A DNA stretch of 64,000 bases from Dehalococcoidia bacterium (GTDB taxonomy: Bacteria > Chloroflexota > Dehalococcoidia > Lucifugimonadales > UBA2985). Shown piece by piece: positions 5,863 to 63,341 of the stretch (within the stretch, counting starts at the first letter, position 1; each line of letters starts with the position of its first letter). The notes beneath the pieces are model-generated. The model saw only the letters and a program-made list of their open reading frames with translations, had not been told where the DNA came from and did not search any database. Both the position numbers and the translations under genes were made by a program. The stretch is from NCBI GenBank assembly GCA_034422115.1, contig DAOUJW010000015.1, forward strand, positions 27,771-91,770, read 5' to 3'.

Positions 5863-6630
5863 ATGGTCCAGAATCGCATAGATCACAAATGGGGCATGGT
5901 GGTGGACATAGACCGGTGCACGGGGTGCCAGGCGTGCGTTGTTGCGTGCCAGGCCGAGAACAACATTCCCCTGAACACCGAGGACCTGTTCCGCCAGCGC
6001 AGAGCCATCCAGTGGATCCACATAGAGCGGTACTGGGAGGGCGAATATCCAGATGTCAAGGCCCGGTTCATCCCGATTCTGTGCCAGCACTGCGAGAACG
6101 CCCCCTGCGAGCCGGTTTGCCCCGTGTACGCCACCTACCACAACAACCAGGGACTGAACGTACAGGTGTACAACCGCTGCGTGGGCACTCGATACTGCGC
6201 CAACAACTGCCCCTACCAGGTGCGCTTCTTCAACTTCTGGGAGCCCGTCTGGCCGGAGTCCCTGAGAAACCAGCTCAACCCCGATGTCACCATTCGCAGC
6301 CGGGGCATCATGGAGAAGTGCAGCTTCAACGTGCAGCGCCTTCGGAGGGCTGAGCGCATCATCGAAAGGCAGGAGGGAGGCAGGATAACGGACGAGGACC
6401 TGTCGATGGGCAACTATCTTCCGGCCTGCGTCCAGGCTTGCCCCACCAACACGCTGGTGTTCGGGGACTTCAACGACCCCGACAGCAAGGTCTCCAGGAT
6501 GAAGGAGGAGCACCTGCACGAAGGCGGCAGGGGCTACAAGCTCCTGGACTTCCTTGGCACGGAGCCAAACGTGATCTACCTGAGCAAGGTGGACCCATAC
6601 GCTACAGACACGGGTGACGGACATGCATGA
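5863..6630 (+). CDS. actB: ActB2: 4Fe-4S ferredoxin-type iron-sulfur subunit
   Basis: CTGCQACVVAC, CQHCENAPCEPVCP, CVGTRYCANNCPY and CVQACP clusters. I chose ATG 5863 because track start 5773 overlaps B1. Confidence 0.85.
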   Translation: MVQNRIDHKWGMVVDIDRCTGCQACVVACQAENNIPLNTEDLFRQRRAIQWIHIERYWEGEYPDVKARFIPILCQHCENAPCEPVCPVYATYHNNQGLNVQVYNRCVGTRYCANNCPYQVRFFNFWEPVWPESLRNQLNPDVTIRSRGIMEKCSFNVQRLRRAERIIERQEGGRITDEDLSMGNYLPACVQACPTNTLVFGDFNDPDSKVSRMKEEHLHEGGRGYKLLDFLGTEPNVIYLSKVDPYATDTGDGHA

Positions 6631-7993
6631 GCTTCACCGTATGCCGACTCCGGCTCTCCTGAGTATGACGTCTCAGGGGATAACGGACGACGTCCTGACC
6701 AGGCATTCGTCGGGCGGCGGTAAATTCCGCCTGGTAATGGCCGGAGCGGCGGTGCTCTTCTTGCTGGGCATAGTCGGCTTCTTCATGCTCCTGGGCGAGG
6801 GCTTTGAGGACCGCTCCGCATGGGGCTACTACGCGGCCATCTTCGCCTACATCTTCTCGGTGTCCCAGTCTGCGGTGCTGGTGTCGGTGGCGCTGCGAAT
6901 GGCCAAGGCCCACTGGCGGAGGCCGCTGTCCAGGGTATCGGAGATGTTCTCGGCAGTGGGCATTCTGGCGTTCCTCATGATGCTTCCACTGCTCTGGGTG
7001 CTGCCCTCCATCGAAGGGCGGAGGAGCCTGTGGTTCGATGCGCCGGGCTACAGCCCCCACGTTTGGGACACCATTGCGATGGGCCTGCTGGTGGTCAACG
7101 GCCTAGCGCTGCTGTACTTCGCCGCCGTGCCTGACCTGGCAACCCTCCGGGACAACGGAGGCAGGCGCCAGGGCCTCTACAGGATGCTCTCCCTCAGCTG
7201 GTCAGGCTCCCGCAAGCAGTGGAAGATGCTGCACGCGGGCATCGGCACGCTGGGCGGCTTCTACTTCATGTTCCTCATCTTTGTGCACATGATGATAAGC
7301 ACCGACTTCTCCATGAGCCTGATTCCGGGCTGGAAGGACGCCATCTACCCGGCCTACCACGGCCTGAGCGGGCTGCAGTCTGGGGTTGCGGTGGTGCTGG
7401 TGACCATGTTCATCCTGCGGAGGTGGGGCGGGCTTAGAGACTTCATTGAAGTGGACCAGTTCTGGGGCCTGAGCAAGCTGCTTCTGGCGCTGTCCCTGCT
7501 GTGGTTCTACTTCTGGTGGGCCAGCTTCTTCACCTACTGGTACGGACGCACGCCGGCGGAGCAGAGTGTGCTGGAATACATCATGTTCGAAAGCTACAGG
7601 CCGGCCTTCTTCACGGCGTTCCTCCTGTGCTTCCCTGTACCGTTCCTGATACTCATGTGGAACGTAGTCCGGAAGACCGACTGGGGCCCGTCCCTGGCCG
7701 GAAGCATCGTCCTCGTGGGGACGTTCTTCAACATGATTCGCCTGTACGTCCCCGGCTACTCCGTGGAAGACCTTACGGAGCACGCCCTGGAGCACGTGCC
7801 TGCGGCGAACCTGCCGGGACTGACCGACGTGCTGGTCGTGGCCGGAGCTCTGGGAGGCGCGGTGCTGTTCTACATGCTGGCCACCAGGATAATCCCCATA
7901 ACAAACATCTGGGAGATGAAGGAGGGTCTGCTCCTCCAAAGGGTACGTACGCTACTGAAGACGGAGGTCAGGGTGCTGGCCAAGCCCGAGTAG
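6614..7993 (+). CDS. NrfD/PsrC-like polytopic quinol-interacting subunit (ActC/ActF type)
   Basis: 459 aa, about 10 TM, paralogous to the next ORF. The start may be one of the ATGs at 6623, 6641 or 6665. Confidence 0.8.
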   Translation: MTDMHELHRMPTPALLSMTSQGITDDVLTRHSSGGGKFRLVMAGAAVLFLLGIVGFFMLLGEGFEDRSAWGYYAAIFAYIFSVSQSAVLVSVALRMAKAHWRRPLSRVSEMFSAVGILAFLMMLPLLWVLPSIEGRRSLWFDAPGYSPHVWDTIAMGLLVVNGLALLYFAAVPDLATLRDNGGRRQGLYRMLSLSWSGSRKQWKMLHAGIGTLGGFYFMFLIFVHMMISTDFSMSLIPGWKDAIYPAYHGLSGLQSGVAVVLVTMFILRRWGGLRDFIEVDQFWGLSKLLLALSLLWFYFWWASFFTYWYGRTPAEQSVLEYIMFESYRPAFFTAFLLCFPVPFLILMWNVVRKTDWGPSLAGSIVLVGTFFNMIRLYVPGYSVEDLTEHALEHVPAANLPGLTDVLVVAGALGGAVLFYMLATRIIPITNIWEMKEGLLLQRVRTLLKTEVRVLAKPE

Positions 7994-8047: not shown

Positions 8048-9424
8048 ATGCAGGAAAGATTCAGGCTCACAGACGCCGAAATTAACCGAGACCTTCTCCG
8101 CTCCACTATGGAGAATCCTCTGTGGTACTGGCTGCTCGTGGGCGCCTTGGGCACGATAGTGGTGGTCGCCTTTGGCGCGGCAGGCTTCATGTTCAACAAG
8201 GGACTGGGCGTCACCGGCCTCAACCGGCCGGTCATGTGGGGCTTCTTCATCACCAACTTCGTGTTCTGGATCGGCATCAGCCACGCGGGCGTGATGCTTT
8301 CGGCCATCCTCAGACTGGCTCAGGCCGAATGGCGGCGTCCCGCCACCAGGGCCGCAGAGGTGCTCACGGTCTTCTCCCTGATGACGGCCATGCTCATGCC
8401 GCTCATCCACGCCGGAAGGCCCTGGAGAGTGGCCTACTGGGTGTTCCCCTTCGACTGGGCCAGGGGAGTGTACCCCAACGTCCGCTCCGCGCTGGTGTGG
8501 GACCCCGCTGCGGTGTTCACCTACCTGACCAGCAGCATCCTGTTCGTCTACATTGCCCTGGTGCCGGACATAGCCGTGGCCCGGGACAGGACCACCGGCT
8601 GGCGGCACGTCCTGTACACCATTCTGGCCCTGGGCTGGAGGGGCAGCGTACGGCAATGGAAGCTCCAACTCATCGCCGGCATACTCCTATCCGCCATCAT
8701 CCTGCCCATCTTCGTCTCTGTGCACAGCATTGTGTCATGGGACTTCGGTATGGCCGTATCCGTGGAGGGATGGCATAGCACCGTCTTCGCTCCCTACTTC
8801 GTTATCGGCGCAGTCCACTCCGGAGTGTCCGGCGTGGTGACGGTGATGATTGTGCTGCGGTACTTCTTCCAGTGGCAGGACTACATCCGCCACGAACACC
8901 TGGACGCCCTGGCCAAGCTGCTGATTGTGGTAGCAACCGCCTGGTTCTTCTTCTTCCTGTTGGAGTTCTTCTTTGGGCTGTACAGCCTGGAGGCTCCGGA
9001 GATAGCCTTGAGGGAGATGCAGGTCTTCCAGGCGCCTTGGTCGATATACTTTGTCACGTTCCTGATTGCGTCCTATTTCATACCTGTGCCCTTATGGCTG
9101 TTCAAGAAAGTTAGACGCAGCGTGGGGTGGATGCTGTTCACCACCATACTGGTCAACGTCGGCATGTGGCTGGAGCGATTCATCATCATCGTGCCCGGCT
9201 TGGCGAGGAAGCAGAACTTCAGCTTCACCTGGGGAGGCTACACGCCCAGCGCTGTAGAGGTGATCATCATCGGAGCCACCTTTGCGCTGGTCTGTATGCT
9301 GGTGCTGCTCTTCGCCAAGATATTCCCTCTCATCCCCATTGGGGACACCAAGGAGGGCGTAGTCCTGGAGGACTCCATACAAGTAGGAAAGGTAAAAGTT
9401 CCCGCCATAATGCGGGAGGATTAA
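8048..9424 (+). CDS. NrfD/PsrC-like polytopic subunit (ActC/ActF type; probably ActC by adjacency to actD)
   Basis: 458 aa with GLNRPVMWGFFITNFVFWIGISHAG, typical of the NrfD family. Confidence 0.8.
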   Translation: MQERFRLTDAEINRDLLRSTMENPLWYWLLVGALGTIVVVAFGAAGFMFNKGLGVTGLNRPVMWGFFITNFVFWIGISHAGVMLSAILRLAQAEWRRPATRAAEVLTVFSLMTAMLMPLIHAGRPWRVAYWVFPFDWARGVYPNVRSALVWDPAAVFTYLTSSILFVYIALVPDIAVARDRTTGWRHVLYTILALGWRGSVRQWKLQLIAGILLSAIILPIFVSVHSIVSWDFGMAVSVEGWHSTVFAPYFVIGAVHSGVSGVVTVMIVLRYFFQWQDYIRHEHLDALAKLLIVVATAWFFFFLLEFFFGLYSLEAPEIALREMQVFQAPWSIYFVTFLIASYFIPVPLWLFKKVRRSVGWMLFTTILVNVGMWLERFIIIVPGLARKQNFSFTWGGYTPSAVEVIIIGATFALVCMLVLLFAKIFPLIPIGDTKEGVVLEDSIQVGKVKVPAIMRED

Positions 9425-10014: not shown

Positions 10015-10581
10015 ATGCCGGGCCTTACGCTGGCCGCCCTTGTGCTGGCCGTCGCCGCCATCGGCTGTCTGCCGTGGGGCAGGGGCGCCTACCAGGTTGA
10101 CGTCTTCGGAGAGATGCACTACACCCAGGTGCACCGCTCCCAGGAGCCGCCCCGTCTCTATCCGCCGGAAGACTCCGTTCCCTTCCAGCTGGTCGGCGAC
10201 GGGTCCCTTGAAGTGCATCAGATGATGGCTATGGAGATGAGCGACCAGAGCGCGGCCATGGGCGAGAGCCTGTACGCCGTCAACTGCGCCGTTTGCCACG
10301 GCATGGCCGGCAAGGGCGACGGCTCCATGAGCCCGTTCCTGCTCAAGTGGGGCGCAGTTGCGCCTACAGACCTCACAGCCGCGGCCACCGTTGAGAGGAC
10401 AGACGAGATGCTGTTCGACCTCATCTCGGAAGGCGGCCCGACAAAGCTGGCGCTGGCCGAGGCCGGTCAGGACTCCAACATCGTCGGCAACACCATCTCC
10501 ATGCCGGTCTTCTGGAAGCTCCTGAACGAGAAGGATCGGTGGGCGCTGGTCCATCACGTACGGGCGCTCCAGAGCCAGTAG
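10015..10581 (+). CDS. actE: ActE: lipid-anchored monohaem cytochrome c
   Basis: Lipobox LAVAAIGC and a single CAVCHG. ATG 10015 preferred; the track start TTG 9961 overlaps actD. Confidence 0.75.
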   Translation: MPGLTLAALVLAVAAIGCLPWGRGAYQVDVFGEMHYTQVHRSQEPPRLYPPEDSVPFQLVGDGSLEVHQMMAMEMSDQSAAMGESLYAVNCAVCHGMAGKGDGSMSPFLLKWGAVAPTDLTAAATVERTDEMLFDLISEGGPTKLALAEAGQDSNIVGNTISMPVFWKLLNEKDRWALVHHVRALQSQ

Positions 10582-21380: not shown

Positions 21381-21455
21381 ATTGTACCATCTCGGAACTC
21401 CCAATATAATGCTTTCAATGGCACACACGGCGAGCGTCAATAGAGGCGGACGATA

Positions 21456-21547
21456 CCGCTCATCCTGAGCTTGTCGAAGGAAATGAGCGGGGGCCGCCCG
21501 TCTTTGCTGTTCCCGCTCAAATGGTTCGACAGGCTCACCATGAGCGG
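21456..21547. repeat. Family A palindromic repeat (two units)
   Basis: CCGCTCATCCTGAGCTTGTCGAAGGAAATGAGCGGG ... CCCGCTCAAATGGTTCGACAGGCTCACCATGAGCGG. Confidence 0.9.
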
Positions 21548-21586
21548 AAACAGCCTTCATAGAAGAGGCACAGGAGAAGTCAAAAT

Positions 21587-22616: not shown

Positions 22617-22708
22617 CCCGCTCATCCTGAGCTTGTCGAAGGATATGAGCGGGGGGCTACACCGCACTCTTTCCGCTCATATGGTTCGACAAGGCTCACC
22701 ATGAGCGG
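22617..22708. repeat. Family A palindromic repeat (two units)
   Basis: Same architecture as 1087-1181. Confidence 0.9.
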
Positions 22709-22798
22709 AAAGGAAGTGGAATCCTGGATGGCATTGGCATTTCTAACCCATATCTGGAATACCAGAAACTCTGCGCCACCTTCGCAACCCAGAACAGA

Positions 22799-23897: not shown

Positions 23898-23902
23898 ATG
23901 AA

Positions 23903-23969
23903 CGTCGTTCCTGCGAAAGCAGGAACCTCTGCCCCCACTCCTAGATTCCTGCTTTCGCAGGAATGACGG
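23903..23969. repeat. Family B palindromic repeat (CGTC[AG]TTCCTGCGAAAGCAGGAA ... ATTCCTGCTTTCGCAGGAATGACGG)
   Basis: Two GAAA-loop hairpin arms in inverted orientation; at least 10 related copies in the window. Confidence 0.9.
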
Positions 23970-24028
23970 GATAGAGGAATAGCGCTGTACTCCTATCGTA
24001 CGTATGGAAATGTAGACATCTGCGAGCC

Positions 24029-27686: not shown

Positions 27687-30593
27687 CTAAACCAGAGGGG
27701 GTGACGCTTGTCCGAACGAGTTGCCGCCCCAGCAGGTCAGTGAACCATCCTGGCTCAGGGCGCAAGTGTGAGACTCTCCGCTGCTTACGGCGACAAACGT
27801 CTCCCCGGAGGGCGGCGACGCCTGGCCGTCGGCGTCTCTGCCCCAGCAGGCCAGGGAGCCATTGGCGCGGAGAGCGCAGGTGTGATACCCCCCGCTGCTG
27901 ATGGCGGTGAACGTTTCACTGGATGGCGTCGACGCCTGGCCGTCATCGTTGTGGCCCCAGCATACCGGGGTCCCGTCGGTGCGGAGAGCGCACGTATGCC
28001 AATGCCCGCTGCTGATGGCCGTGAAACTCTCACCCGGGGGAGGTGACGCTTGGCGGAACGCATTGGCGCCCCAGCAGACAGGCGAGCCGTCGGAGCGAAG
28101 GGCGCAGGTGTGGTACCAGCCGCTGCTGATAGCGGTGAACGTTTCGCCTGATGGCGGCAACGCTTCGCCCACCTCGTTGTCGCCCCAGCAGACCGCAGAG
28201 CCGTTGGCGCGGAGGGCGCAGGCGTGAAAGCTCCCGCTGCTGATGGTAGTGAATCTCTCCCTGGAGGGCGGAAACGATTGGTGGACGTCGTCGCGGCCCC
28301 AGCATACCGGTGTCCCGTTGAGGTGGAGGGCGCAGGTATGAGTGCCACCGGCGCTGATGGCGGCGAAGGTTTCACCGAATGGTGACACTGCCTGGCCGTA
28401 CTGGTTGTCACCCCAGCAAGCCGGAGTTCCATCAGGGCGGAGGGCGCAGGTGTGGGTGCCGCCGCTGCTGACTGTGACAAAGTCCTCGTCTGCGGGTTCC
28501 GGTATCGATACCTGACCTGAACTATCCGAACCCCAGCAGACGGGTGAGCCGTTGGATCGCAGCGCACAGGTGTGAGCGCCCCCGCTGCTGATGGCGTCGA
28601 AATGCTCGTCGAAGGGCGCCGACGCCTGGCCGTCCGCATCCAAGCCCCAGCACACCGGCGAGCCGTCGTCGCGGAGAGCGCACGTGTGACGGCTGCCGCT
28701 GGAAATGGACGTGAAATTTTCGCCGAAGGGGGGCCACGTCTGCCGGTGCTGGTTGTCACCCCAGCACACCGGCGAGCCGTCCTGGTGAAGGCCGCACGTG
28801 TGGGCGCCACCGCTGCTGATAGACTTGAGCCTTTCGAAAGAGGGCGGCGACGCGCGACCATGCCTGTCAGGGCCCCAACAAGACGTCAGGCCGTTGGAGC
28901 GAAGGGCGCAGGTATAGCCCTCGCTGCTGCTGATTGAGACAAACCTTCCGCCGGATGGAGGCGTTGTTCGACCATATCTGTCGTCGCCCCAGCAGACCGG
29001 TGAACCGTTGGGGCGCAGGGCACAGGTGTGATACCTGCCGCTGCTGATGTCAATGAACTGCTCGTTTGGTGGAGGCGATGACTGGCCGTACTCGTCATCG
29101 CCCCAGCAGGCGGGCAAGCCGTCCGGGCGTAGCGCGCAGGTGTGGTTCCAACCGCTGCTGATGTCGATGAAATGCTCGTCAAGGGGAAGCGATGACTGGC
29201 CGTACTGGTTGTCGCCCCAGCAGGCGGGTGAGCCGTCCGGGTGGAGGGCACAGGTGTGGGTGTCGCCGCTGCTGATGGCAATGAAGCCGGAAACCACGAG
29301 AGGATGCGGAGGCGTGGCATCCGGCGTCTGCACGACCGTGGGAACCGCCGTCGGAGTCGGCGTCGCGGTTGGAGAGAGTATGGCAAGAGGCGACGCCTGA
29401 CCAAACCCATCGTGGCCCCAGCAGACCGGCGAGCCGTCAAAGTGGAGGGCGCAGGTGTGATTTACGCCGCTGCTGATGGCGGAGAGCGCACCGGGGGGAG
29501 GTGACGCCTGGTCGTACTGGTTGTCACCCCAGCACACCGGGTAGTTCTGGGCGCTGAGGGCGCAGGTGTGCCAGCCTCCGCTGCTGATGGCGACCAAGCT
29601 CCTACCGGAGGCAGGCGAAGCCTGGCCTTCTTCGTCGTGGCCCCAGCAGACCGGTGACCCGTTGGGCCGAAGGGCGCACGTGTGGCCGAAGCCGCTGCTC
29701 ATGGAGGCAAAAATGCTTCCAGATGGGGGCGACGCTTGGCCGACATCGTCGCGGCCCCAGCAGACCGGGGAGCCGTCGGCGCGGAGGGCGCAGGTGTGAA
29801 TGTCACCGCTGCTAATGGACGCGAAGCTGCGCCCGGCGGGGGGCGACGCCTGGCCGTTTCCGTCTTCGCCCCAGCAGACCGGCGTGCCGTCGGCGCGCAG
29901 GGCGCAGGTGTGAAAGTCACCACTGCTTATGGCGGTGAAGCTCTCGCCCGTGGGCGGCGACGCCTGGCCAACTTCATCGTCGCCCCAGCACACCGGCGAG
30001 CCGTCAGCGCGGAGGGCGCAGGTGTGAAAGTAGCCGCTGCTTATGGCGGTGAAGCTCTCGCCCGTGGGCGGAGACGCCTGGCCTACTTCATCGTCGCCCC
30101 AGCAGACCGGGGAGCCGTCAGCGCGCAGGGCGCACGTGTGCCAACCCCCGCTGCTGATGAGGGTGAAGCTGAGCGGCGTAGGCGTAGCCGTGGGGACCGG
30201 CGTTGGGGTTGGGACGGGAGTATCCATTGGAGCAATGGGCGGCGGCTGGGTCGGGGGAGGAGCCGCCGTTGGCGTGTCAGCCGGCGTCGGGTCAACTGTG
30301 GGAACCTGCGTTGGGGCCGCCGTTGGCGCGGGAGTTGCCGTCGGCGCAACCGTGGGCGCCGGCGTTGGGATGGCAGTCGGTGGGTGCGCAGCGGTGGGGA
30401 CCGGCGTCGGAACCGCCGTTGGCGTGGGAGCCGGGGAGGGCGTTGGGGATGGGGCTGAAGTCGCCGTGGGCGTTGCGACTTGACCGGGCGTCGGAGAGGC
30501 TTCCCCGGCGCCGTCGGTGCAGGCGGCTATGCTCAGAATGAGCAGGCACAAGAGCGCGGACAGGGCAACTGCATGGAGGCCTCTGAAGCGCAT
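27687..30593 (-). CDS. RCC1-repeat lipoprotein, 21 blade-like repeats
   Basis: Lipobox LSIAAC, Pro/Thr-rich linker, then 21 copies of ISSGxxHTCALRxDGSPVCWGxDxxGQASPPxGExFxA (38-aa, 114-nt period). Confidence 0.85.
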   Translation of the reverse strand: MRFRGLHAVALSALLCLLILSIAACTDGAGEASPTPGQVATPTATSAPSPTPSPAPTPTAVPTPVPTAAHPPTAIPTPAPTVAPTATPAPTAAPTQVPTVDPTPADTPTAAPPPTQPPPIAPMDTPVPTPTPVPTATPTPLSFTLISSGGWHTCALRADGSPVCWGDDEVGQASPPTGESFTAISSGYFHTCALRADGSPVCWGDDEVGQASPPTGESFTAISSGDFHTCALRADGTPVCWGEDGNGQASPPAGRSFASISSGDIHTCALRADGSPVCWGRDDVGQASPPSGSIFASMSSGFGHTCALRPNGSPVCWGHDEEGQASPASGRSLVAISSGGWHTCALSAQNYPVCWGDNQYDQASPPPGALSAISSGVNHTCALHFDGSPVCWGHDGFGQASPLAILSPTATPTPTAVPTVVQTPDATPPHPLVVSGFIAISSGDTHTCALHPDGSPACWGDNQYGQSSLPLDEHFIDISSGWNHTCALRPDGLPACWGDDEYGQSSPPPNEQFIDISSGRYHTCALRPNGSPVCWGDDRYGRTTPPSGGRFVSISSSEGYTCALRSNGLTSCWGPDRHGRASPPSFERLKSISSGGAHTCGLHQDGSPVCWGDNQHRQTWPPFGENFTSISSGSRHTCALRDDGSPVCWGLDADGQASAPFDEHFDAISSGGAHTCALRSNGSPVCWGSDSSGQVSIPEPADEDFVTVSSGGTHTCALRPDGTPACWGDNQYGQAVSPFGETFAAISAGGTHTCALHLNGTPVCWGRDDVHQSFPPSRERFTTISSGSFHACALRANGSAVCWGDNEVGEALPPSGETFTAISSGWYHTCALRSDGSPVCWGANAFRQASPPPGESFTAISSGHWHTCALRTDGTPVCWGHNDDGQASTPSSETFTAISSGGYHTCALRANGSLACWGRDADGQASPPSGETFVAVSSGESHTCALSQDGSLTCWGGNSFGQASPPLV

Positions 30594-31243: not shown

Positions 31244-31300
31244 TGCCAGGGGAGGGAAGGCCCAAGTAACCTACGAACTACCGGATGGTTATTCCTAATC

Positions 31301-31370
31301 CCGTCATTCCTGCGCAAGCAGGAATCTAATGGCCTGGGGATAGAGGTCCCTGCTTTCGCAGGGACGACGG
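31301..31370. repeat. Family B palindromic repeat
   Basis: CCGTCATTCCTGCGCAAGCAGGAATCTAA...GGTCCCTGCTTTCGCAGGGACGACGG. Confidence 0.9.
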
Positions 31371-31391
31371 CTTATCAGAAGTTTCTTAGAG

Positions 31392-35331: not shown

Positions 35332-35385
35332 CCGGAGACGGACATATAGGAAATCTCTGAATAATTACGGCGCTACTCCACCAGC

Positions 35386-35453
35386 CCGTCATTCCTGCGG
35401 AAGCAGGAATCTAGAAGGTGAGGGCGGAGGTTCCTGCTTTCGCAGGAACGACG
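35386..35453. repeat. Family B palindromic repeat
   Basis: CCGTCATTCCTGCGGAAGCAGGAATCTAG...GGTTCCTGCTTTCGCAGGAACGACG. Confidence 0.9.
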
Positions 35454-35479
35454 ATCTTGCAAAAGAGGAGGAGCGAGAG

Positions 35480-39396: not shown

Positions 39397-39485
39397 GGGC
39401 TTTGCTCGTCGGGAGTGCCGTCTCTTCCTACCTATGAAAGAGAGACCTTTGCGCAAGCCGATATCTCTCCTAAGAAGACGCCCCA

Positions 39486-39576
39486 CCGTCATTCCTGCGG
39501 AAGCAGGAATCCATCCCTGGACGGAGGGGAGGGTGCCCCGGCCCCGCCTAGATTCCCGTTTTCACGGGAATGACGG
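39486..39576. repeat. Family B palindromic repeat
   Basis: CCGTCATTCCTGCGGAAGCAGGAATCC...CTAGATTCCCGTTTTCACGGGAATGACGG. Confidence 0.9.
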
Positions 39577-39655
39577 GAAGGGTAGAGGTTTAACACTTTT
39601 CAGGCGTCGCTAGAACCTAAACAAAACTGAAAAACAGACTTGAGGAGGTCCCCCA

Positions 39656-42016: not shown

Positions 42017-42120
42017 CCATCCCGCCTAACGACACCTTCACCACCATTCCTGCGTAGGCAGGAATCCAGGGGCGGCGGGGTGTGGACTCCCGCCTTCGCG
42101 GGAGTGGATTGGACTTGTTC
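41998..42120. mobile_element. Family E 124-bp TIR element, copy 1 (MITE-like)
   Basis: TIRs GAACAAGTC / GACTTGTTC. Roughly 90% identical by hand alignment to 55715-55838. The left end overlaps the last codons and stop of miaA. Confidence 0.75.
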
Positions 42121-42172
42121 AGACCATTCTTAAATCGCAGGTGTAATGAGTGCGTTGCATAGAGCAAAAGAA

Positions 42173-48413: not shown

Positions 48414-49638
48414 ACGCAAGGAGGACTCCGCCACGCCAAAGACCCCGATATCCACGAAAGTCCGGCCCGAGAGGGCCGTGGTGGTGGGAGTGGATGCCAG
48501 AAGCTCGCCCCACCTGTGGACAATAGAGGACTCCCTGGAGGAGTTGGGACTCCTCGCGAACACCGCGGGTGCGGAGGTGGTTGGCGCCGTCTCTCAACGC
48601 CTGGAGAAGCCCACTCACTCCTACGTGGGCAAGGGCAAGCTGGGGGAGGTGCAGGCGCTCAGAGAGGACCTGGAAGCCGACGTTGTGATTTTCGACGACG
48701 AGCTTACGCCGTCCCAGCAGCGCAACCTGGAGGACGCCCTCAAGGTCAAGGTAATCGACCGCACTGCGCTCATCCTGGACGTGTTTGCGCGTAGGGCGCG
48801 GACGCGGGAGGGGCGACTTCAGGTGGAGCTGGCACAGCACGAGTACATCTTGCCGCGCCTGGCAGGCCAGTGGACGCACCTGGAGCGCCTGGGCGGCGGC
48901 ATAGGCACCCGGGGCCCAGGCGAGACGCAGCTTGAGACGGACCGTCGGTTAATTCGGACCAAGATCCAAAGGCTCAAGAGGGAGCTCGACGACGTGCGGC
49001 AGCAGAGAGACCTGTACCGCAATCGTCGGAAGCGACAGGGCATTCCCGTGGTGTCCCTGGTGGGCTACACAAACGCGGGAAAGAGCACGCTCCTCAACGC
49101 CCTGAGCGACGCCGGCGTGGTGGCGGAGGACAAGCTGTTCTCGACGCTTGACCCGGTGACCAGGAGGATAAAGCTGCCGGGCGAAGGCTTCTTCCTGCTA
49201 ACGGACACCGTCGGGTTCATCCAGAAGCTGCCTCCGAGCCTCCTGGCGGCGTTCAGAGCGACCCTGGAGGAGCTGCAGGAGGCCGACGGCATTCTGCACG
49301 CCGTGGACATAACGCATCCCAACGCCGCGGAGCAGGTGCAGGTGGTGGACGACCTCCTGACGGAGCTCGACCTGGACGAGAAGCCCCGCATCTGGGCCAT
49401 GAACAAGATGGACCTGCTGATGGACGAGTCGCAGATAGAGGAGCAGATAGGCCTCCTGGAGGCCCGGAGAGGCGAGGAAAGCGTTGTGGCTGTGTCTGCG
49501 GCCAGGGGCTGGGGGCTGGACAGCCTGCTGGAAGCGGTTGATAATCTTATAAAAGGCCAGATAACCGGGCCTCATAATGCAGCGGGGTTCTGGGCGAACC
49601 ACCGCTATCAAGATCAGGAAAAGGAGAACCGGTCATGA
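48358..49638 (+). CDS. hflX: GTPase HflX
   Basis: ERAVVVGV..., [21 protein letters not shown]. The start is uncertain: ATG 48358 overlaps dapL by 56 nt, and GTG 48478 is also possible. Confidence 0.85.
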
Positions 49639-49976
49639 CAATGGAAATAGAGGGTCTGCCTTCCAGGCCTTTCTTCAACTGCACCCCCGAGGGGCTGGAT
49701 ATTCTGGATTCCAGAGAGATGAGCGGCGCGGCGCGCCTGGACGCGATTGAGCCGAAGATCAGGTTTGAGCTGGGTGACAGGAACGTCATCGACTCAAGGC
49801 CGCGCAAGGCCGCCAGCTCCAAGCCCGGCCAGGTGACGGTTGAGTGCGAGGGCGGCACGGTCCACATCGACTTCGAGGACGGGCGGGCAAAGAAGGTCAC
49901 GGCCCAGGGCGAGTTCGTCTACATGGGCGGCCTTGAGGACCGGAACGAGGGCCTGGGGTACATCCCTGTGTCTTAG
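49635..49976 (+). CDS. Hypothetical protein, translationally coupled to hflX
   Basis: 113 aa; ATGA overlap with the hflX stop. The C-terminal 14 aa [14 protein letters not shown] are duplicated at 51719-51764. Confidence 0.6.
49931..49976 (+). repeat. Left 46-bp direct repeat (att-like) of the islet
   Basis: 39/46 identical to 51719-51764 by my alignment. Confidence 0.85.
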
Positions 49977-50148
49977 CAGTAGCGGGGCAGATCATTCACT
50001 CAGTGGCCCCCGGTTCTCGTCACCCCCAAGGGAGGTCGGTTTCTCGAAAGAAGCACCAGGTAAGGGAATCGGTGCTAGTGTCAATACTTTGTGGTATATT
50101 TATGCTACAGGTACCAAAGACTATCTATGAAGGGAATCCACTAAGAGT

Positions 50149-50463
50149 ATGGAAATGCAGGAGGGACCAGAGCCTAAGAATACTCTACCAGCGGCCGAGC
50201 CTGCTGAAGATTTGCAGGAATTCTACGCCGACAACATGACAATAAACTCCGGGCTTTATACGGCCACTCTATCCTTCGGGGAATTACGGGGCAACGACCC
50301 AGGGATTCTACGTGCGCGCATTCGGGTTAGTCCTCACATGCTAAAGGCAATTAGCCTGCTTACGGCCAAGCACGTGCGGGATTTCGAGGCGAAAACTGGC
50401 GGTCCCATCCTACTCCCTAATGAATTGGTACACCAATGGGGATTGGAGGAAGAAATCAGATGA
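50149..50463 (+). CDS. DUF3467 family protein
   Basis: FYADNMTINSGLYTATLSFGEL...RARIRVSPHMLKAISLLTAKHVRDFEAKTGGPI matches my recall of the DUF3467 pattern. Confidence 0.65.
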   Translation: MEMQEGPEPKNTLPAAEPAEDLQEFYADNMTINSGLYTATLSFGELRGNDPGILRARIRVSPHMLKAISLLTAKHVRDFEAKTGGPILLPNELVHQWGLEEEIR

Positions 50464-50705
50464 TGATGGCAACAGTTACGACAACAGCAGAGAACTTCGT
50501 TGCTGTTACAGCAGCGCTAGAAGTCGAAGGTTATACTTGGCGATCAATCGCTGAGCATTCAACTGAGCCGGATGACCAGTCGTGGTTCTGGACTTCTGCA
50601 TGGCAAGAAGAAGAGGGTGAAGCTACGTTGGAAATCCAGAGAGGGCAACTCTCCAAGCCTCTTTTTGGTGTGGAAGAGATAAGGCAGCATCTCTCCGACC
50701 TATAA
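50460..50705 (+). CDS. Small acidic Trp-rich protein, putative antitoxin
   Basis: 81 aa; its ATG overlaps the DUF3467 stop (ATGA). It ends 9 nt before the RelE-like ORF. Confidence 0.45.
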   Translation: MMMATVTTTAENFVAVTAALEVEGYTWRSIAEHSTEPDDQSWFWTSAWQEEEGEATLEIQRGQLSKPLFGVEEIRQHLSDL

Positions 50706-50714
50706 TAGCTGTCC

Positions 50715-51011
50715 ATGGCTGGTGGCCAGAGTACCATTAAGGCGGTTCGATTCACCCCACGATTCGACCGCTCCTATAAGCGCAAGTCTAAGGAGCAGCG
50801 TGAGGCTGTTGACGAGGCGGTAGTGCAGTTGTATACCAATCCTTCGAATCCTTGGCTACGCGTGAAGAGAGTTCGTGGAGTCGGCAAGGGAGAGGAGATT
50901 TGGGAAGCATCCGTGGATATGTCTCGACGAATTACCTTCGAATATGGCGACGACGGCTCGACCATAATATTCCGCAATTGCAATGGACATGAAATCTTCA
51001 GGCAACCCTAA
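50715..51011 (+). CDS. RelE/ParE-superfamily toxin-like protein
   Basis: FTPRFDRSYKRKSKEQREAVDEAVVQLYTNPSNPWLRVKRVRG...IWEASVDMSRRITFEYGDDGSTIIFRNCNGHEI fits the RelE/YafQ/ParE-like layout. Confidence 0.6.
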   Translation: MAGGQSTIKAVRFTPRFDRSYKRKSKEQREAVDEAVVQLYTNPSNPWLRVKRVRGVGKGEEIWEASVDMSRRITFEYGDDGSTIIFRNCNGHEIFRQP

Positions 51012-51272
51012 CCATCCACAACCCCGGAGTCGTCCATTTCAACCCGCTGCTGCGGCCTAGGCCAGGGCAGTATCCGCCCGAATAGGCAACAATGTCCTTT
51101 GCCAAGTGTCCCTCTTTTGTTTTGTCACTAGTGCTGTCCTCTCGCTGACGGCTTATGTTCTCGGATCACAGCCACTGGAGTCACATCCTCCGCACCTTGA
51201 GCCACAGCCTTGATCTGGTAATTGCCTTCCTAGCTTTCGTCGCTAGCATAGTGTCGGGGATCCTTTGCTTTC

Positions 51273-51500
51273 TCAATAGCAAAGATAGGCGATAACCCCG
51301 TAGGGGCTACGAGCTAGGCATAATACATCTCCTAGATCACCCTCCAAACAGCTGCCTCTTGATTTTACCATCACGAGCTTGCCGTTCTCATCCAGCCTGT
51401 AGCTCAGGTGGAGCCTCTTACCGCAGTTGGTGCAGGTCAACCGGAACACACCCAGCTTCTCATTGGTGTACTCCATTAATGGGGCAGGAACCTCCGGCAA
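51273..51500 (-). CDS. Small hypothetical protein (CxxC)
   Basis: 75 aa, FRLTCTNCGKRLHLSY; TTG start 2 nt after the upstream stop, no SD. Confidence 0.35.
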   Translation of the reverse strand: MPEVPAPLMEYTNEKLGVFRLTCTNCGKRLHLSYRLDENGKLVMVKSRGSCLEGDLGDVLCLARSPYGVIAYLCY

Positions 51501-51502
51501 TC

Positions 51503-51700
51503 CTAGTAGAGCCGCTTGATCTGCTTGCTTTCAGTGTCTAGGGTGCTGAGGCCCAGGATTCCGCCAATGGCTTGAATGCGTCCATTGGTCTCGCTATCAT
51601 CTGAATCCTTCCAGAGGGCAATGACAATGTCGACCAGGTATTTGTCTTCGAGTTCAATGCTAATCTTCGTGCCGTTCGGCAGAGTTGAAGTAATCAACAT
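51503..51700 (-). CDS. Small hypothetical protein
   Basis: 65 aa, AGGAGA 6 nt upstream of the ATG, balanced composition. Confidence 0.5.
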   Translation of the reverse strand: MLITSTLPNGTKISIELEDKYLVDIVIALWKDSDDSETNGRIQAIGGILGLSTLDTESKQIKRLY

Positions 51701-51718
51701 GATTCATCTCCTGTCGGA

Positions 51719-51764
51719 CCTTGAAGACCGGAACGAGGGTCTGGGGTACATACCTGTTTCGTGA
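51719..51764 (+). repeat. Right 46-bp direct repeat (att-like) of the islet
   Basis: Encodes the same [14 protein letters not shown]-stop as the left copy, with only synonymous changes. Confidence 0.85.
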
Positions 51765-51922
51765 GGGGTAGTGCGCCAGTTATAAAACTTCGCCCTATAT
51801 TTGTTATGTCCATTTATAGGGACGGATTCACAGCCCTACTTTACATAACGTGAGCGCATAAGGTTATGTGGCTCTTCCCTTAACGGGGTATTCTCTACAG
51901 GCGTTGGCTATGGTGAACGTCA

Positions 51923-51955
51923 CCGCTCATGTTGAGCTTGTCGAAGTATGAGCGG
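51923..51955. repeat. Family A repeat, solo unit
   Basis: CCGCTCATGTTGAGCTTGTCGAAGTATGAGCGG. Confidence 0.8.
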
Positions 51956-52145
51956 AAAGACAGTGGCGTTACCAACACGTATAGAGAAAACCCTTGACGG
52001 CCGCTTATTGACTTTACCCGTAAAGAGTGCCAGACTCGTTACTTGAATTCCCGCCCCTTGTCTCCCCGGGCTCAAGTCAATGGGCCTTTCCCCATTTGCC
52101 GGGAGACATAATTGAGCGGGATGAAGTTCCAGAGACAGGACGCGC

Positions 52146-53159: not shown

Positions 53160-53166
53160 CCCCCGG

Positions 53167-53414
53167 ACCATTCCTGCGGAAGCAGGAATCCAGAGACATG
53201 GGGTGGCCGCCCTCCCTCCGCCCATAGCCTACGTCGTTCCGCTCATGGTGAGCCTGACGAACCACGAGCGAAGAGACAAACGCCGTCTGCCATCCGCTCA
53301 TCCTGCGACAAGCTAAGAGCCTGCCCCGCGCTTGATGCAGGAGTGAGCCGGAAAGAGGTGGTCTTACGGCCAGCCCGGGCCTCCCCCCTGGATTCCTGCC
53401 TTCGCAGGAATGGT
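53167..53414. repeat. Family B element with family A-type units nested between its arms
   Basis: Arms ACCATTCCTGCGGAAGCAGGAATCCAG (53167-53193) and CTGGATTCCTGCCTTCGCAGGAATGGT (53388-53414). Family A-like units lie at 53239-53270 and about 53292-53352. Confidence 0.8.
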
Positions 53415-53432
53415 TGGCGCGTCCGCGCCGTC

Positions 53433-53544
53433 CGTCATTCTGAACGGAGCGCAGCGGAGTGAAGAATCCAAAGCCTTTGCCCACAAAGCTGCGCCGCCTT
53501 TTTCTGAACCCCTTTGGATTCTTCGCCTTCGGCTCAGAATGACA
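53433..53544. repeat. Family C TIR repeat
   Basis: CGTCATTCTGAACGGAGCGCAGCGGAGTGAAGAATCC...GGATTCTTCGCC...GCTCAGAATGACA. Confidence 0.85.
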
Positions 53545-53569
53545 TTCAACAGAGCCGCCAGCCTGCCGT

Positions 53570-53747: not shown

Positions 53748-54206
53748 ATTGACCTTGAGAAACTCCGGACAGAACTTGAGGAGGAGATACGCGGCCTGGA
53801 GCTTCAGAAGGCCGTCTGCGACGCCCGGCTGGAGGAGAAGCGCCATCTGCTCTCAAGGCTGAGCCAGGACACTCCCCAGGAGCCTGTGCCCGCTCCCGAG
53901 GCTCCTGCGCAGCCTGTCGCCTCCGCCGGCGCGCCCGGCGGCCGTGTCAGCATAACTGACCTCGGCAAGCACCACTACGAGGCGGCCGGCATGAGGTTCA
54001 AGAACGCCGGTCTGCTGCTGGACCACTTTGACGTGCCCCACTACTTCTCCAAGAAGCACCCCAAGCACGGAGACGCGGCGGCCCGTGAGATATTGCGCTG
54101 GTCACGGCGCAGCCCCCAGCTGGCCTCCACAGTCGCCGTTGTGCTGTCCGACGGCTCACGGATGGCCCTGGACGCGGCCGTAGACCGCATCTGGCCGGAT
54201 AGCTAG
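53742..54206 (+). CDS. Hypothetical protein (coiled-coil N-terminus, Pro/Ala linker, basic C-domain)
   Basis: 154 aa from ATG 53742; the track start 53514 runs through repeats. Confidence 0.5.
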   Translation: MAIDLEKLRTELEEEIRGLELQKAVCDARLEEKRHLLSRLSQDTPQEPVPAPEAPAQPVASAGAPGGRVSITDLGKHHYEAAGMRFKNAGLLLDHFDVPHYFSKKHPKHGDAAAREILRWSRRSPQLASTVAVVLSDGSRMALDAAVDRIWPDS

Positions 54207-54222
54207 GAGACCTCTCAAGAGT

Positions 54223-54291
54223 CGTCGTCCCTGCGAAAGCAGGGACCTCTGCGCCCCAGGCCACTAGATTCCTGCTTGCGCAGGAATGACG
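54223..54291. repeat. Family B palindromic repeat
   Basis: CGTCGTCCCTGCGAAAGCAGGGACC...CTAGATTCCTGCTTGCGCAGGAATGACG, between convergent genes. Confidence 0.9.
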
Positions 54292-54302
54292 AGAAACAGG
54301 TT

Positions 54303-55301
54303 TCAGGAGACCCGGGCGAAGACCTCCACCAGGAACTCGCCAATTGAGTTCTCCGTTATGCGGCCCGTCTTGACGGCCCTGTCCGTCTCCAGCAGCCCCC
54401 TGTGAAGGGCCTCCAGCGCATCCCTGGAGTGCCGCCGTCCCTGGTCCATAGTCTTCCTCAGCACCCAGTCGCTGTTCAGCCCCAGGCGTCGCCCCATCTG
54501 CTGCTGCGGCACGCCGTTGGCGGCCAGGTCCTTAGCCAGCAGCAACAGCCTCACCTGCCGGGCCACCATCACAATGACGTACTGGCCGCCGGCCCCCTCC
54601 TCCATGAGTCGCTTTATCGTGCGGAGGGCGTCGGCGTAGCGGCCTTCCATAACGGCGTCCACAGCGTTGAATATGCTCATCTCCCTTGCCAGGGGCACCA
54701 GAAGCTCCACGTCCTCCTCCTCCACCGTGCGGCCCTGGCAGTAGAGGGACAGCTTCTCCACCTCATTGCTCAATGCCCACAGGTTGCCGCCCACAAGCTC
54801 CGCCAGCAGCCTCACTCCGGCCCTGGATATGGCGCAGCCCCGCTCCGCGGCCCTCTGCTCGATCCAGCGGGTAAGCTCAGCGCCCCTCATCTGAGGGAAC
54901 TCCCTGACCAGGCCCAGGGGCGCGAGCCGTGCCAGCAGCGCGTTGTCCCTTCTGACTGCGCCGTCCACCAGCACCAGGTCGGAGGTCGGCGGCATAACGG
55001 GTACGTGCTCGACAATGGACAGCCAGGGCGATGAATCGGCGTCTGCGTTGCGCCCGCGGCCCCTCCTGGGAGCCCTCTGGCCCTCGAACTGCGCCAGAAG
55101 TCCCTCCACAACGGTCATGCGACGCTCCGCCAGGAAGGGCACGGTGCTGCTCAGGGCAATGAGCTCCGCCGGCGATATGTCGGCGGCCTGGGACACGGTC
55201 ACGTTGGCGTCCAGGACGTCCACAGGGCCAACCTGCGCCTTGAGTTCGTCCAGCGCCTCGCGAATGGAGAAGTCGTCCGCGCCGTAGAGGATATGTAGCA
55301 T
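54303..55301 (-). CDS. holA: DNA polymerase III delta subunit
   Basis: MLHILYGADDFSIREALDELK N-terminus, 332 aa, typical HolA length and layout. Confidence 0.8.
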   Translation of the reverse strand: MLHILYGADDFSIREALDELKAQVGPVDVLDANVTVSQAADISPAELIALSSTVPFLAERRMTVVEGLLAQFEGQRAPRRGRGRNADADSSPWLSIVEHVPVMPPTSDLVLVDGAVRRDNALLARLAPLGLVREFPQMRGAELTRWIEQRAAERGCAISRAGVRLLAELVGGNLWALSNEVEKLSLYCQGRTVEEEDVELLVPLAREMSIFNAVDAVMEGRYADALRTIKRLMEEGAGGQYVIVMVARQVRLLLLAKDLAANGVPQQQMGRRLGLNSDWVLRKTMDQGRRHSRDALEALHRGLLETDRAVKTGRITENSIGEFLVEVFARVS

Positions 55302-55633: not shown

Positions 55634-55875
55634 TGTCATTCCTGCGAAAGCAGGAATCTGAAAACGCCGGTTCAAAGTTACGCTGACTTGAGAAAAACAC
55701 TTTAGGAAACCTCTGAACAAGTAGCAAACATGACCATCCCGCCTAACGACACCTTCAATGACCATTCCTGCGTAGGCAGGAATCCAGGAGGGGCGGGGCG
55801 TGGACTCCCGCCTTCGCGGGAGTGGACTGAACTTGTTCAGACTATTCTTAGATTCCCGTTTTCACGGGAATGACA
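55634..55875. repeat. Family B element with family E copy 2 nested in its loop
   Basis: Arms TGTCATTCCTGCGAAAGCAGGAATC (55634-) and GATTCCCGTTTTCACGGGAATGACA (-55875). Confidence 0.75.
55715..55838. mobile_element. Family E 124-bp TIR element, copy 2
   Basis: TIRs GAACAAGT / ACTTGTTC; shares the internal ACCATTCCTGCGTAGGCAGGAATCCAGG...GGACTCCCGCCTTCGCGGGAGTGGA with copy 1. Confidence 0.75.
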
Positions 55876-55915
55876 TGAATTGGAGAGCGTCTTGAACACC
55901 GGAAGGACCCCGTAA

Positions 55916-59343: not shown

Positions 59344-59395
59344 ATCGCTATGGCCTTACAGAGGCCGCGTAAGGGAATGGAAATGCGCAGGTTTT

Positions 59396-59640
59396 TGTCA
59401 TTCCTGCGAAAGCAGGAATCTAAGATTACGGCCACGCCCCGCCCCTGGATTCCCGCCTTCGGAGACCTTTGCACAACTACGGCGTCATCCCGCAGGGAGT
59501 ACGCTTTTCGTCATTCCCGCGAAAGCGGGAATCTAGTTCCTTCTATTCCGAGTGCCCTAGACCCCTGCTTTCGCAGGGGTGACGAAGAGAGAGCGCCCCA
59601 ACTAAGGGTTATTCAAAGGTCTCCCTTCGCGGGAATGGTC
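59396..59640. repeat. Cluster of five family B-type hairpin units in mixed orientation
   Basis: Units near 59396, 59446, 59508, 59557 and 59618. Confidence 0.8.
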
Positions 59641-61708: not shown

Positions 61709-61823
61709 CCCGCTCATAGCCTGCCCCGTACTTGATACGGGGGTGAGCCTGTCGAACAATATGAGCGGGAGTTTTGAGGTCTTGCAGCCTCCGCTCACCC
61801 TTCGACATGCTCTGGGTGAGCGG
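61709..61823. repeat. Family A repeat with inserted CCCCGTA hairpin module
   Basis: CCCGCTCAT-AGCCTGCCCCGTACTTGATACGGGGG-TGAGCCTGTCGAACAATATGAGCGGG, plus the variant unit CCGCTCACCC...GGGTGAGCGG. Confidence 0.85.
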
Positions 61824-63097: not shown

Positions 63098-63191
63098 CCC
63101 GCTCACCCTTCGACAGGCTCAGGGTGAGCGGGGTTTGCACACTACGCCCGCTGTCTTCCCGCTCTGGTTCGACAAGCTCACCATGAGCGGG
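63098..63191. repeat. Family A palindromic repeat (two units)
   Basis: CCCGCTCACCCTTCGACAGGCTCAGGGTGAGCGGG ... CCCGCTCTGGTTCGACAAGCTCACCATGAGCGGG. Confidence 0.85.
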
Positions 63192-63341
63192 AAAGAAGTA
63201 GTACTACAACCAGCGTGGCATTGCCAACACGCTTTGGGGAGACCAGGCGCTACGTTGCTTTGACAGCAAGCGGGCTTTCAGATAGAGTTGAATGACCATT
63301 CGGGCTTTCGGGGACACCAGAATAGATGGAGGGATACAGCG

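Follow-up and report, generated by a model that had tools for sequence, protein, structure and literature searches.

Genes and features at the orf113 locus

We have analysed a 64,000-nucleotide stretch of DNA (hereafter, the window) from an uncultured Dehalococcoidia lineage, and we describe here a small islet that lies in it at the 3' end of orf113, a conserved protein-coding gene. The islet is bounded by two imperfect direct repeats of the gene end and holds small accessory open reading frames (ORFs). A preliminary description of the window had proposed that this interval arose by site-specific integration into the 3' end of the gene. Coordinates are those of the window, and loci in other genomes and assemblies are given by L numbers. 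Repeats resembling attachment (att) sites are called attL-like and attR-like. The locus comprises the following features.

49635-49976, plus strand: orf113, the target gene (113 aa), conserved; it overlaps the hflX stop codon in an ATGA (49635-49638) and is translationally coupled to hflX
49931-49976, plus strand: left direct repeat, attL-like, which supplies orf113 with its functional last 15 codons; host-type in the 5' part, and in the 3' part (ATC CCT GTG TCT TAG) not of the type found in L003
49977-51718, unstranded: islet body, 1742 bp, compositionally foreign and missing from L003, L008, L002 and L022-25
50149-50463, plus strand: cargo ORF of 104 aa, the first of a three-gene module, with no family matches
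50436-50705, plus strand: cargo ORF of 81-89 aa, a candidate antitoxin gene directly 5' of the ParE-like ORF
50715-51011, plus strand: cargo ORF98 (98 aa), a weak ParE/RelE-like toxin candidate with a sub-threshold match to Pfam PF15781
51337-51700, minus strand: pseudogene of a 132-aa ORFan, with its start codon 18 nt from the right repeat and reading inward
51719-51764, plus strand: right direct repeat, attR-like, with another lineage's type in the 5' part (GAC-CTT GAA ... GGT) and the displaced original, L003-type end in the 3' part and flank
51765-52145, unstranded: native intergenic region between orf113 and the ATP-binding cassette (ABC) ATPase gene, now 3' of the islet; it has a ~135-bp insertion resembling repetitive extragenic palindromic (REP) elements (51857-51991), which is missing in L003

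The position of orf113 was always between hflX and the oppD-like ABC ATPase gene, and the order dapF, dapL, hflX, orf113, oppD-like ABC ATPase gene was conserved in relatives whose orf113 is 52-98% identical. The identity amounted to 88-98% in close relatives and 52-63% in distant Dehalococcoidia, and the ratio of nonsynonymous to synonymous substitution rates (dN/dS) was 0.04-0.25. The orf113 product had no match in Pfam, NCBIfam or PDB, and no relatives of it were found in the JGI metagenomes.

The left repeat, CCTTGAGGACCGGAACGAGGGCCTGGGGTACATCCCTGTGTCTTAG (49931-49976), recurs as CCTTGAAGACCGGAACGAGGGTCTGGGGTACATACCTGTTTCGTGA (51719-51764) with 39 of 46 positions identical. Both copies encode an identical 14-residue tail followed by a stop codon and all seven nucleotide differences between them are synonymous, exactly as the preliminary description had reported. 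A repeat finder returned the pair as 42 nt with 90% identity. Between positions 48500 and 53500, the top 46-nt direct match had 40 identities; 30 shuffled sequences gave 27.8 on average and 30 at most. Synonymous changes make up 25% of the possible single-base changes in the repeat stretch, and the probability of six independent changes all being synonymous is ~2.6e-4. The two copies agree without a mismatch over 14 nt at most. Beyond the left-repeat boundary, the upstream flanks of both copies showed no further homology, with a score at shuffle level.

An assembly artefact was excluded by an independent Logan assembly (L001, from SRR13587046), which was 100% identical over both junctions. A tRNA or tmRNA gene as the target was likewise discarded, as there is none within the window. 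The repeat had no match in Rfam, and promoter and terminator scans of it stayed at background.

Empty sites and chimeric junctions

The preliminary description had suggested a search for relatives in which orf113 is followed directly by the region starting at 51765. Such empty sites were found in L003, L008 and L022-L025, where a homologue of window position 51765 onward comes directly after orf113 and the gap between orf113 and the ABC gene measures 259-261 bp. The TARA contig L002 is also empty and stops before the ABC gene, and the distant loci L027-L031 are empty as well, with gaps of ~260-270 bp. A second copy of the gene end was equally missing from 12 further species, in which nine gaps measured 211-358 bp and the L051 contig ended short of the ABC gene; larger gaps were seen in three of them (L047, L049 and L053), that of L053 being filled by a 211-bp tandem array. 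In total, about 25 loci had no second gene-end copy. The presence of empty sites in both close and distant relatives argues that the empty state is ancestral and the insertion derived.

The closest relative, L003, whose flanks are 94.6% identical to those of the window, has an empty site reading CCTTGAGGACCGGAACGAGGGCCTGGGATACATACCTGTTTCGTGA-GGGGTAGTGCGCCAG. The 5' part of this site carries the left-copy variants GAG and GGC, and its 3' part carries the right-copy variants ATA, GTT, TCG and TGA together with the downstream flank of the right copy. The original gene end has thus been displaced rightward, and orf113 is now finished by an islet-supplied ATC CCT GTG TCT TAG (the last four sense codons plus the stop). 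This agreed with the earlier proposal that the islet had brought its own copy of the gene end. Both window junctions switch ancestry within one 11-nt interval, CTGGGGTACAT (repeat positions 23-33), and the chimeric composition of the L003 site hence places a single reciprocal crossover there. The mismatch density between the window and L003 was even, ~4-5%, up to both junctions.

The islet-derived 5' part of the right copy (GAA, GGT and the GAC before them) showed the states of a sub-lineage that we call cluster 2. In cluster 2, the end of the orf113 product includes MGDLEDRN versus MGGLEDRN, GAC being the cluster-2 Asp codon, and the match of the right copy to cluster-2 gene ends extends 3 nt farther leftward through this GAC.

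Composition and cargo of the islet

In 300-nt windows, the G+C content of the interval was 0.49-0.53 versus 0.60-0.67 in the flanking genes, and the 40-48% of the preliminary description was not reproduced. The native intergenic DNA at empty sites had a similarly low G+C content (0.48-0.51), so that the G+C content at third codon positions (GC3) is the discriminating measure. The GC3 of the islet ORFs was 0.44-0.64 versus 0.82-0.86 in dapF, dapL, hflX, orf113 and the ABC gene. By this measure, the islet is compositionally foreign to its host, which is the outcome that the preliminary description had expected from a check of composition.

The cargo consists of a three-gene module. The 3' part of the 104-aa ORF (50311-50473) had ~79% nucleotide identity to sequences in L033-L035, and L034 has a 100-aa ORF in the same position. 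ORF98 matched PF15781 with an E-value of 0.005 and 17.1 bits, below the curated cut-off of 28, and four of its six homologues also matched this family sub-threshold (best E-value, 5.8e-4). The structural model of ORF98 had a predicted local distance difference test score (pLDDT) of 61, with a secondary structure order of beta-alpha-alpha-beta-beta-beta(-beta), compatible with RelE/ParE. A fold search with this model gave nothing significant, RelE chains appearing only at E-values of ~2-3, and ORF98 had no sequence match in PDB. Homologues of ORF98 elsewhere had a small partner ORF (65-88 aa) upstream at every other locus seen.

The whole module recurs at unrelated loci with 77-80% nucleotide identity, the homology ending around the ORF98 stop codon. 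Its copies lie between dnaJ and rpsF (L032) and beside two DDE transposases (L033), the others being on short contigs. The cargo is thus an independently mobile cassette of toxin-antitoxin (TA)-like genes, the TA assignment being a prediction.

Between the ParE-like ORF and the pseudogene there is a further ORF of 46 aa (51155-51295, plus strand), with a hydrophobic C-terminal half and a very weak SLATT match (E = 0.064). It may encode a small membrane protein or be spurious.

Sister islets at the same site

Inserts bounded by gene-end repeats were found at exactly the same site in seven other genomes (L005, L006, L011, L012, L013, L014 and L021). Intact sister islets occur in the samples ERZ26694542, ERZ25074053 and ERZ28669063, and the complete chromosomes include one with an islet (OZ253466.1) and two without (OZ242025.1 and OZ244718.1). 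In six of these seven, the repeat has 81-86 nt, made up of the gene end (46 nt) and a further ~38 nt of the spacer behind it, up to CGCCCTATAT; in L021 the repeat has 178 nt. The left repeat boundary was the same in all eight islets, and the right boundary was common to the seven sister islets only, within a few nucleotides. No homology was detected in the sister islets past the 81-86 nt on the right. A longer ancestral duplication of the whole intergenic region was rejected, and no homology ran past the repeat boundaries.

The islets range from 0.7 to 3.7 kb and their cargo varies. L011 and L012 carry a DUF4145 protein that matched the PD-T7-4 defence model (E = 1.6e-8), L006 carries a DDE transposase that belongs to a secondary insertion sequence (IS) within the islet, and the remaining sister islets carry ORFans.

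All sister islets but L005 make up the cluster-2 islets. These share a non-coding left end of ~150 nt directly 3' of the left repeat (AGGAGAGACTTACGTGGCTCTTAGGCC...GCCTGTCCCTCC), which is at least 95% conserved, and thereby better conserved than the islet's protein gene, and which the window islet does not have. It spans positions 8202-8360 of L011 (reverse complement), with equivalents in L006, L012, L013, L014 and L021. Its minimum free energy of folding was ~-62 kcal/mol, with z ~-3 on either strand, and it had no match in Rfam. The left end of the window islet, tested in the same way as a structured RNA, gave z = +0.33.

The L021 repeats (9215-9391 and 10126-10303) contain the 3'-terminal 139 nt of orf113, joined to what is left of a truncated 132-aa gene, and an 87-aa chimeric ORF (P0021) was called over the fusion. 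A local duplication with later recombination between repeats accounts best for this arrangement.

Six other loci with additional DNA after orf113 were considered as further islets and rejected, as none has a second gene-end copy (L007, L004, L026, L047, L049 and L053). L007 has an unrelated insert of ~1.4 kb right after the orf113 stop codon (6343-7720), with neither repeats nor a gene-end duplicate nor a convincing ORF. The gap of L004 holds a copy of a repeat element that is also found at window positions 53396-53563, and the gaps of L026 and L053 hold arrays of a ~210-bp repeat. Insertions in general may favour the short spacer that follows orf113.

A conserved 132-aa ORFan is dead in the window islet

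The only gene common to the islet family encodes an ORFan of 132 aa whose C-terminal part has a CxxC...CxxC zinc ribbon. Intact copies are present in L006 and L011-14, and the dN/dS of 0.10-0.27 indicates purifying selection. The window copy lacks 36 nt (~51564) and 1 nt (51473-51484) and has 2 extra nt (51358-51369); at 51500-51511 a Cys-to-Tyr change, by which the first zinc-ribbon cysteine is lost, is accompanied by a TAG nonsense codon. Five small ORFs had been listed previously for the interval. Two of them, the minus-strand ORFs of 65 and 75 aa, turned out to be pieces of this one pseudogene.

The ORFan family is very small. Seven close relatives were found in 5.8 billion clusters, and an exhaustive HMMER search of 1.84 billion representatives returned five matches, all from the family itself but for one artefactual repeat protein; two of the five are the window's own fragments and one is another degraded fragment. 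No Pfam, PHROG, NCBIfam or PADLOC model matched the ORFan, and neither it nor the islet DNA had a match among GenBank phages or PLSDB plasmids. Its AlphaFold model was poor (pLDDT 54.6) and the fold search returned noise.

The window islet is therefore a decayed member of its family, one of the two states that the preliminary description had allowed for: its conserved gene is dead, and its repeats have only 46 bp with seven mismatches. It is probably immobile now, and it would persist as a carrier of the three-gene, ParE-like TA-type cargo.

Exchange between islets and the origin of the right copies

The synonymous divergence (dS) of the 132-aa gene was 0.20-0.42, or 3-5 times the value that orf113 next to it had for the same pairs of genomes. 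Islets and hosts have different histories. A 2.1-kb block made up of the interior of the islet, the right repeat and the next 28 bp has no mismatch between L011 and L012, which differ by 1-3% in their flanks and by 10-12% in their junction zones. The left flank of L014 grouped with the empty L024/25 and its right flank with L013, and occupied and empty sites were interspersed in the flank trees. The members of the family exchange by homologous recombination.

Among the eight right copies surveyed there were no private substitutions, each variant being also present among native gene ends, and seven of the eight keep the reading frame, the exception being L006 with one additional G in a G run. 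The right copies have thus been re-derived repeatedly from functional gene ends, instead of decaying in place. The absence of private substitutions and the GAC codon of the other lineage fit the earlier view that both copies had evolved as coding sequence in different lineages.

Entry of the islet and the explanations considered

We consider it rather probable that 49977-51718 is a small non-autonomous integrative islet, flanked by att-like sites, which entered in Campbell fashion through an enzyme that either acted in trans or has been lost. The chromosomal end of orf113 would have undergone one reciprocal crossover, in or beside the common core CTGGGGTACAT, with a circle that bore a mimic of this end. 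This would yield two hybrids, the left one keeping orf113 intact with the islet-supplied end and the right one being the displaced original end. The mimic would have been built from real orf113 ends of earlier hosts, which would explain why all differences between the copies are synonymous. With such a mechanism, the circular junction would read ...CATGATTCATCTCCTGTCGGACCTTGAAGACCGGAACGAGGG[T/C]CTGGGGTACAT[C/A]CCTGTGTCTTAGCAGTAGCGGGGCAGATC... and the matching empty site ...GGCGGCCTTGAGGACCGGAACGAGGG[C/T]CTGGGGTACATACCTGTTTCGTGAGGGGTAGTGCGCC.... Homologous recombination through conserved ends and flanks would in addition carry islets and cargo from one related strain to another, and recombination between the repeats could lead to islet loss.

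Concerning the earlier claim of site-specific integration, the insertion itself was borne out by the empty sites and the junctions, and catalysis by a site-specific recombinase at the founding insertion is what the sequence pattern suggests. Such an enzyme is favoured because both points of exchange lie within the same 11 nt, perfect identity between the partners reaches no more than 14 nt, and the left repeat boundary is common to all islets and the right one to the sister islets.

Several results weigh against this reading. Searches of the eight islets and of the 64-kb window yielded no recombinase, in agreement with the preliminary description, which had noted no integrase. A Pfam search of 10 low-GC3 ORFs of the window found no integrase, and phmmer searches of six-frame window pieces with XerD, gamma-delta resolvase and lambda Int found nothing below E = 0.04, the sensitivity of this screen being limited. 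The att pattern was absent from IMG/VR viral contigs and JGI metagenome contigs. In GTDB representative genomes (three of them complete chromosomes), it occurred only at the chromosomal orf113 locus, and the site was present once per representative genome; the recombinase gene that the preliminary description had proposed to look for beside the same 46-bp sequence elsewhere was thus not found. No circular junction was seen, the att pattern in contig collections corresponding to the chromosomal locus only, nor was there a tandem array, with never more than two repeat copies per locus. L014 and L021 have foreign variants on both sides of the core and hence no fixed crossover point, and the repeat lengths differ between islets (46, 81-86 and 178 bp). 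The exchange that could be documented is homologous, with breakpoints away from the core. Finally, the crossover mapping is thin, with few single-nucleotide differences to place it and a proxy for the pre-insertion state, L003, that is 5% diverged.

Part of this evidence would be equally expected if the site were a hotspot of homologous recombination and nothing else, an explanation that we find unlikely but that deserves serious weight. A one-off duplication of the gene end and part of the spacer would have been followed by RecA-mediated swapping of cargo, with no site-specific recombinase ever involved. Exchange would proceed via orf113, the islet ends and the ABC-side flank, gene conversion from the left copy would keep the right copy coding-like, and recombination between the repeats would regenerate empty sites. 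The zero-mismatch block of L011/L012 beside diverged flanks and junction zones, the L014 flanks belonging to different lineages, the variable repeat lengths, with the 178-bp repeat of L021 best explained as duplication plus homologous recombination, and the lack of a recombinase in islets and window all speak for it. However, it leaves the origin of the first duplication unexplained, and the longest perfect identity in the window, 14 nt, is well under the usual requirement of RecA. Moreover, both window exchange points lie in the same 11-nt interval despite kilobases of flanking homology, the left repeat boundary is the same in eight islets with no homology past it, and the right boundary is common to the seven sister islets within a few nucleotides.

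We regard it as very unlikely that the 132-aa ORFan and the folded ~150-nt left end form a self-contained element of a new kind, which does or recruits site-specific recombination at a gene end and of which the window copy is dead. Similarly, there is only a slim chance that the ORFan is a mobility protein, either a new small recombinase or a recruiter of a host recombinase, working with the structured left end on the neighbouring repeat, so that the sister islets would be autonomous. It is the only gene common to all islets, it is under purifying selection (dN/dS 0.10-0.27) and it occupies the usual place of an integrase gene, 18 nt from an att-like repeat and reading inward; the conserved folded left end of cluster 2 could be an arm-type site. 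Against this, the ORFan has no likeness to any recombinase, transposase or recombination directionality factor family, and 132 aa is, to our knowledge, smaller than any known site-specific recombinase. Its tiny family is limited to one locus (five matches in 1.84 billion representatives, one of them spurious) and has no phage or plasmid homologues, and the AlphaFold model was poor (pLDDT 54.6) and the fold search uninformative. The least credible of the explanations considered, to which we attach almost no weight, takes the right copy as the 3' end of a real plus-strand ORF (62 aa, 51576-51764) whose tail mimics that of orf113, selection on the peptide then explaining the synonymy. In every islet, the plus frame is indeed open over the ~55-60 codons before the right copy, and seven of the eight tails are in frame. 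This open frame, however, lies opposite the part of the 132-aa gene that encodes its highly conserved N-terminus, and its preservation is therefore passive. It has no conserved start codon, at least one substitution (CTTCGTG versus CTTAGTG) changes the amino acid in the plus frame but not in the minus frame, and the L006 tail has a frameshift. The right copy is besides already accounted for by the empty sites and the chimeric junctions.

Comparison with known systems

In our comparison, the islet appeared to work most like a cis-mobilizable element (CIME), such as the CIMEs at the 3' end of fda that were left in streptococci by ICESt1/ICESt3-type elements. It shares with them the location at the 3' end of a protein-coding gene, the attL/attR direct repeats containing the gene end, the lack of integration and transfer genes and the accessory cargo. 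CIMEs are defined as keeping attL and attR and having lost the genes for integration and transfer (PMC5704250). The eight islets differ in having no fragments of int, relaxase or type IV secretion system genes, and among ~30 loci there was neither an integrative and conjugative element (ICE) or integrative and mobilizable element (IME) at this site nor tandem accretion with an integrase-bearing element. They are also much smaller (0.7-3.7 kb) and have a conserved ORFan of their own and, in most sisters, a conserved structured end. As no remnant or relative of an ICE or IME was found at the site, membership in the CIMEs fails on derivation.

The microcin H47 island of E. coli is another recombinase-less case. 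It has 13 kb, long imperfect direct repeats and no recombination genes, and its recA-independent excision and integration have been shown (PMC3191183). Its hybrid att sites lie in alternative identity segments, and its mobility was described as "parasitic," via trans-acting functions (PMC3191183). The islet is likewise small, with imperfect direct repeats and no recombinase, and is known here from its sequence alone; it differs in size (1.7 versus 13 kb), in host phylum and in having a coding gene end as target. Insertion into the 3' part of a coding gene is also seen with lambdoid phage 21 and e14 in icd of E. coli, the classical case of such a gene end, which are integrase-encoding prophages of 15-40 kb that supply a replacement gene end differing almost only synonymously. 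There, too, the displaced end is a pseudo-copy at the far junction. The islet differs from these prophages in its 1.7 kb and in its lack of an integrase or phage genes.

The tycheposons of Prochlorococcus are defined by tyrosine or serine recombinases and mostly target tRNA genes (bioRxiv 10.1101/2020.12.28.424599). The likeness lies in the marine hosts, the cargo elements stacking at fixed sites, the partial target copies that flank them and the common occurrence of integrase-less remnants, and the difference in that the islet family has no known recombinase-bearing member. Xer-dependent modules have 28-bp XerC/XerD sites at their ends; examples are the integrative mobile elements exploiting Xer (IMEX) and the pdif modules of Acinetobacter plasmids. 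Like the islet, they are small and recombinase-less, they often carry TA genes, and they are moved by a host recombinase. The islet site showed no likeness to the dif consensus by eye, no computational dif search having been made, and it differs in being a coding gene end that occurs once per genome. A transposon or IS was rejected. The islet termini have no inverted repeats, the window islet has no transposase and a duplication of 46-178 nt is far too long; with no terminal inverted repeats and an overlong duplication, the islet is therefore not a transposon.

The locus offers a clean case, from an uncultured lineage, of an islet of accessory genes in the coding end of a conserved gene that it provides with a synonymous replacement end. 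With it, the scant knowledge of gene flow in marine Dehalococcoidia gains a target in a protein gene and a new family of elements. Eight islets at one site, with cargo of TA-like or defence-like type, no recombinase, one shared ORFan and homologous exchange, suggest that small islets can persist and spread integrase-less. The window copy, a decayed remnant, serves mainly as a marker of the islet family. If the ORFan were a mobility factor after all, the family would represent a new minimal recombination system.

Other features of the window and of related loci

The REP-like insertion of the native intergenic region belongs to a family of intergenic hairpins (CCGCTCAT..GAGC..GTCGAA..ATGAGCGG), found at 51857-51991, 1087-1184, 21455-21550, 22617-22710, 53233-53314, 61742-61823 and 63099-63193. 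A second family of REP-like palindromes (CGTCATTCCTGCGGAAGCAGGAATC and variants) has at least 20 copies in the window, in both orientations and often paired around units of 100-250 bp. These lie at 23900-23990, 31298-31390, 35366-35456, 39479-39590, 42034-42135, 53166-53193, 53380-53414, 54203-54303, 55634-55887 and 59392-59581. At least one of these units, 53396-53563, has a copy in the orf113-ABC intergenic region of L004.

In the relatives, the neighbourhood of orf113 holds many small genes of TA and defence types. A pair of HigB-like toxin and helix-turn-helix (HTH) antitoxin genes lies 5' of dapF in some of them (L021, 5015-5672; L022, 6001-6658), others having the HTH gene only, and a HEPN_AbiU2 gene lies ~9 kb downstream of orf113 in most. 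The window also contains, at 27687-30593 on the minus strand, a 968-aa ORF with at least 21 tandem repeats of 114 nt (38 aa) and a ...DGSPVCWG... motif, which recalls beta-propeller repeats of the RCC1/BLIP-II type.

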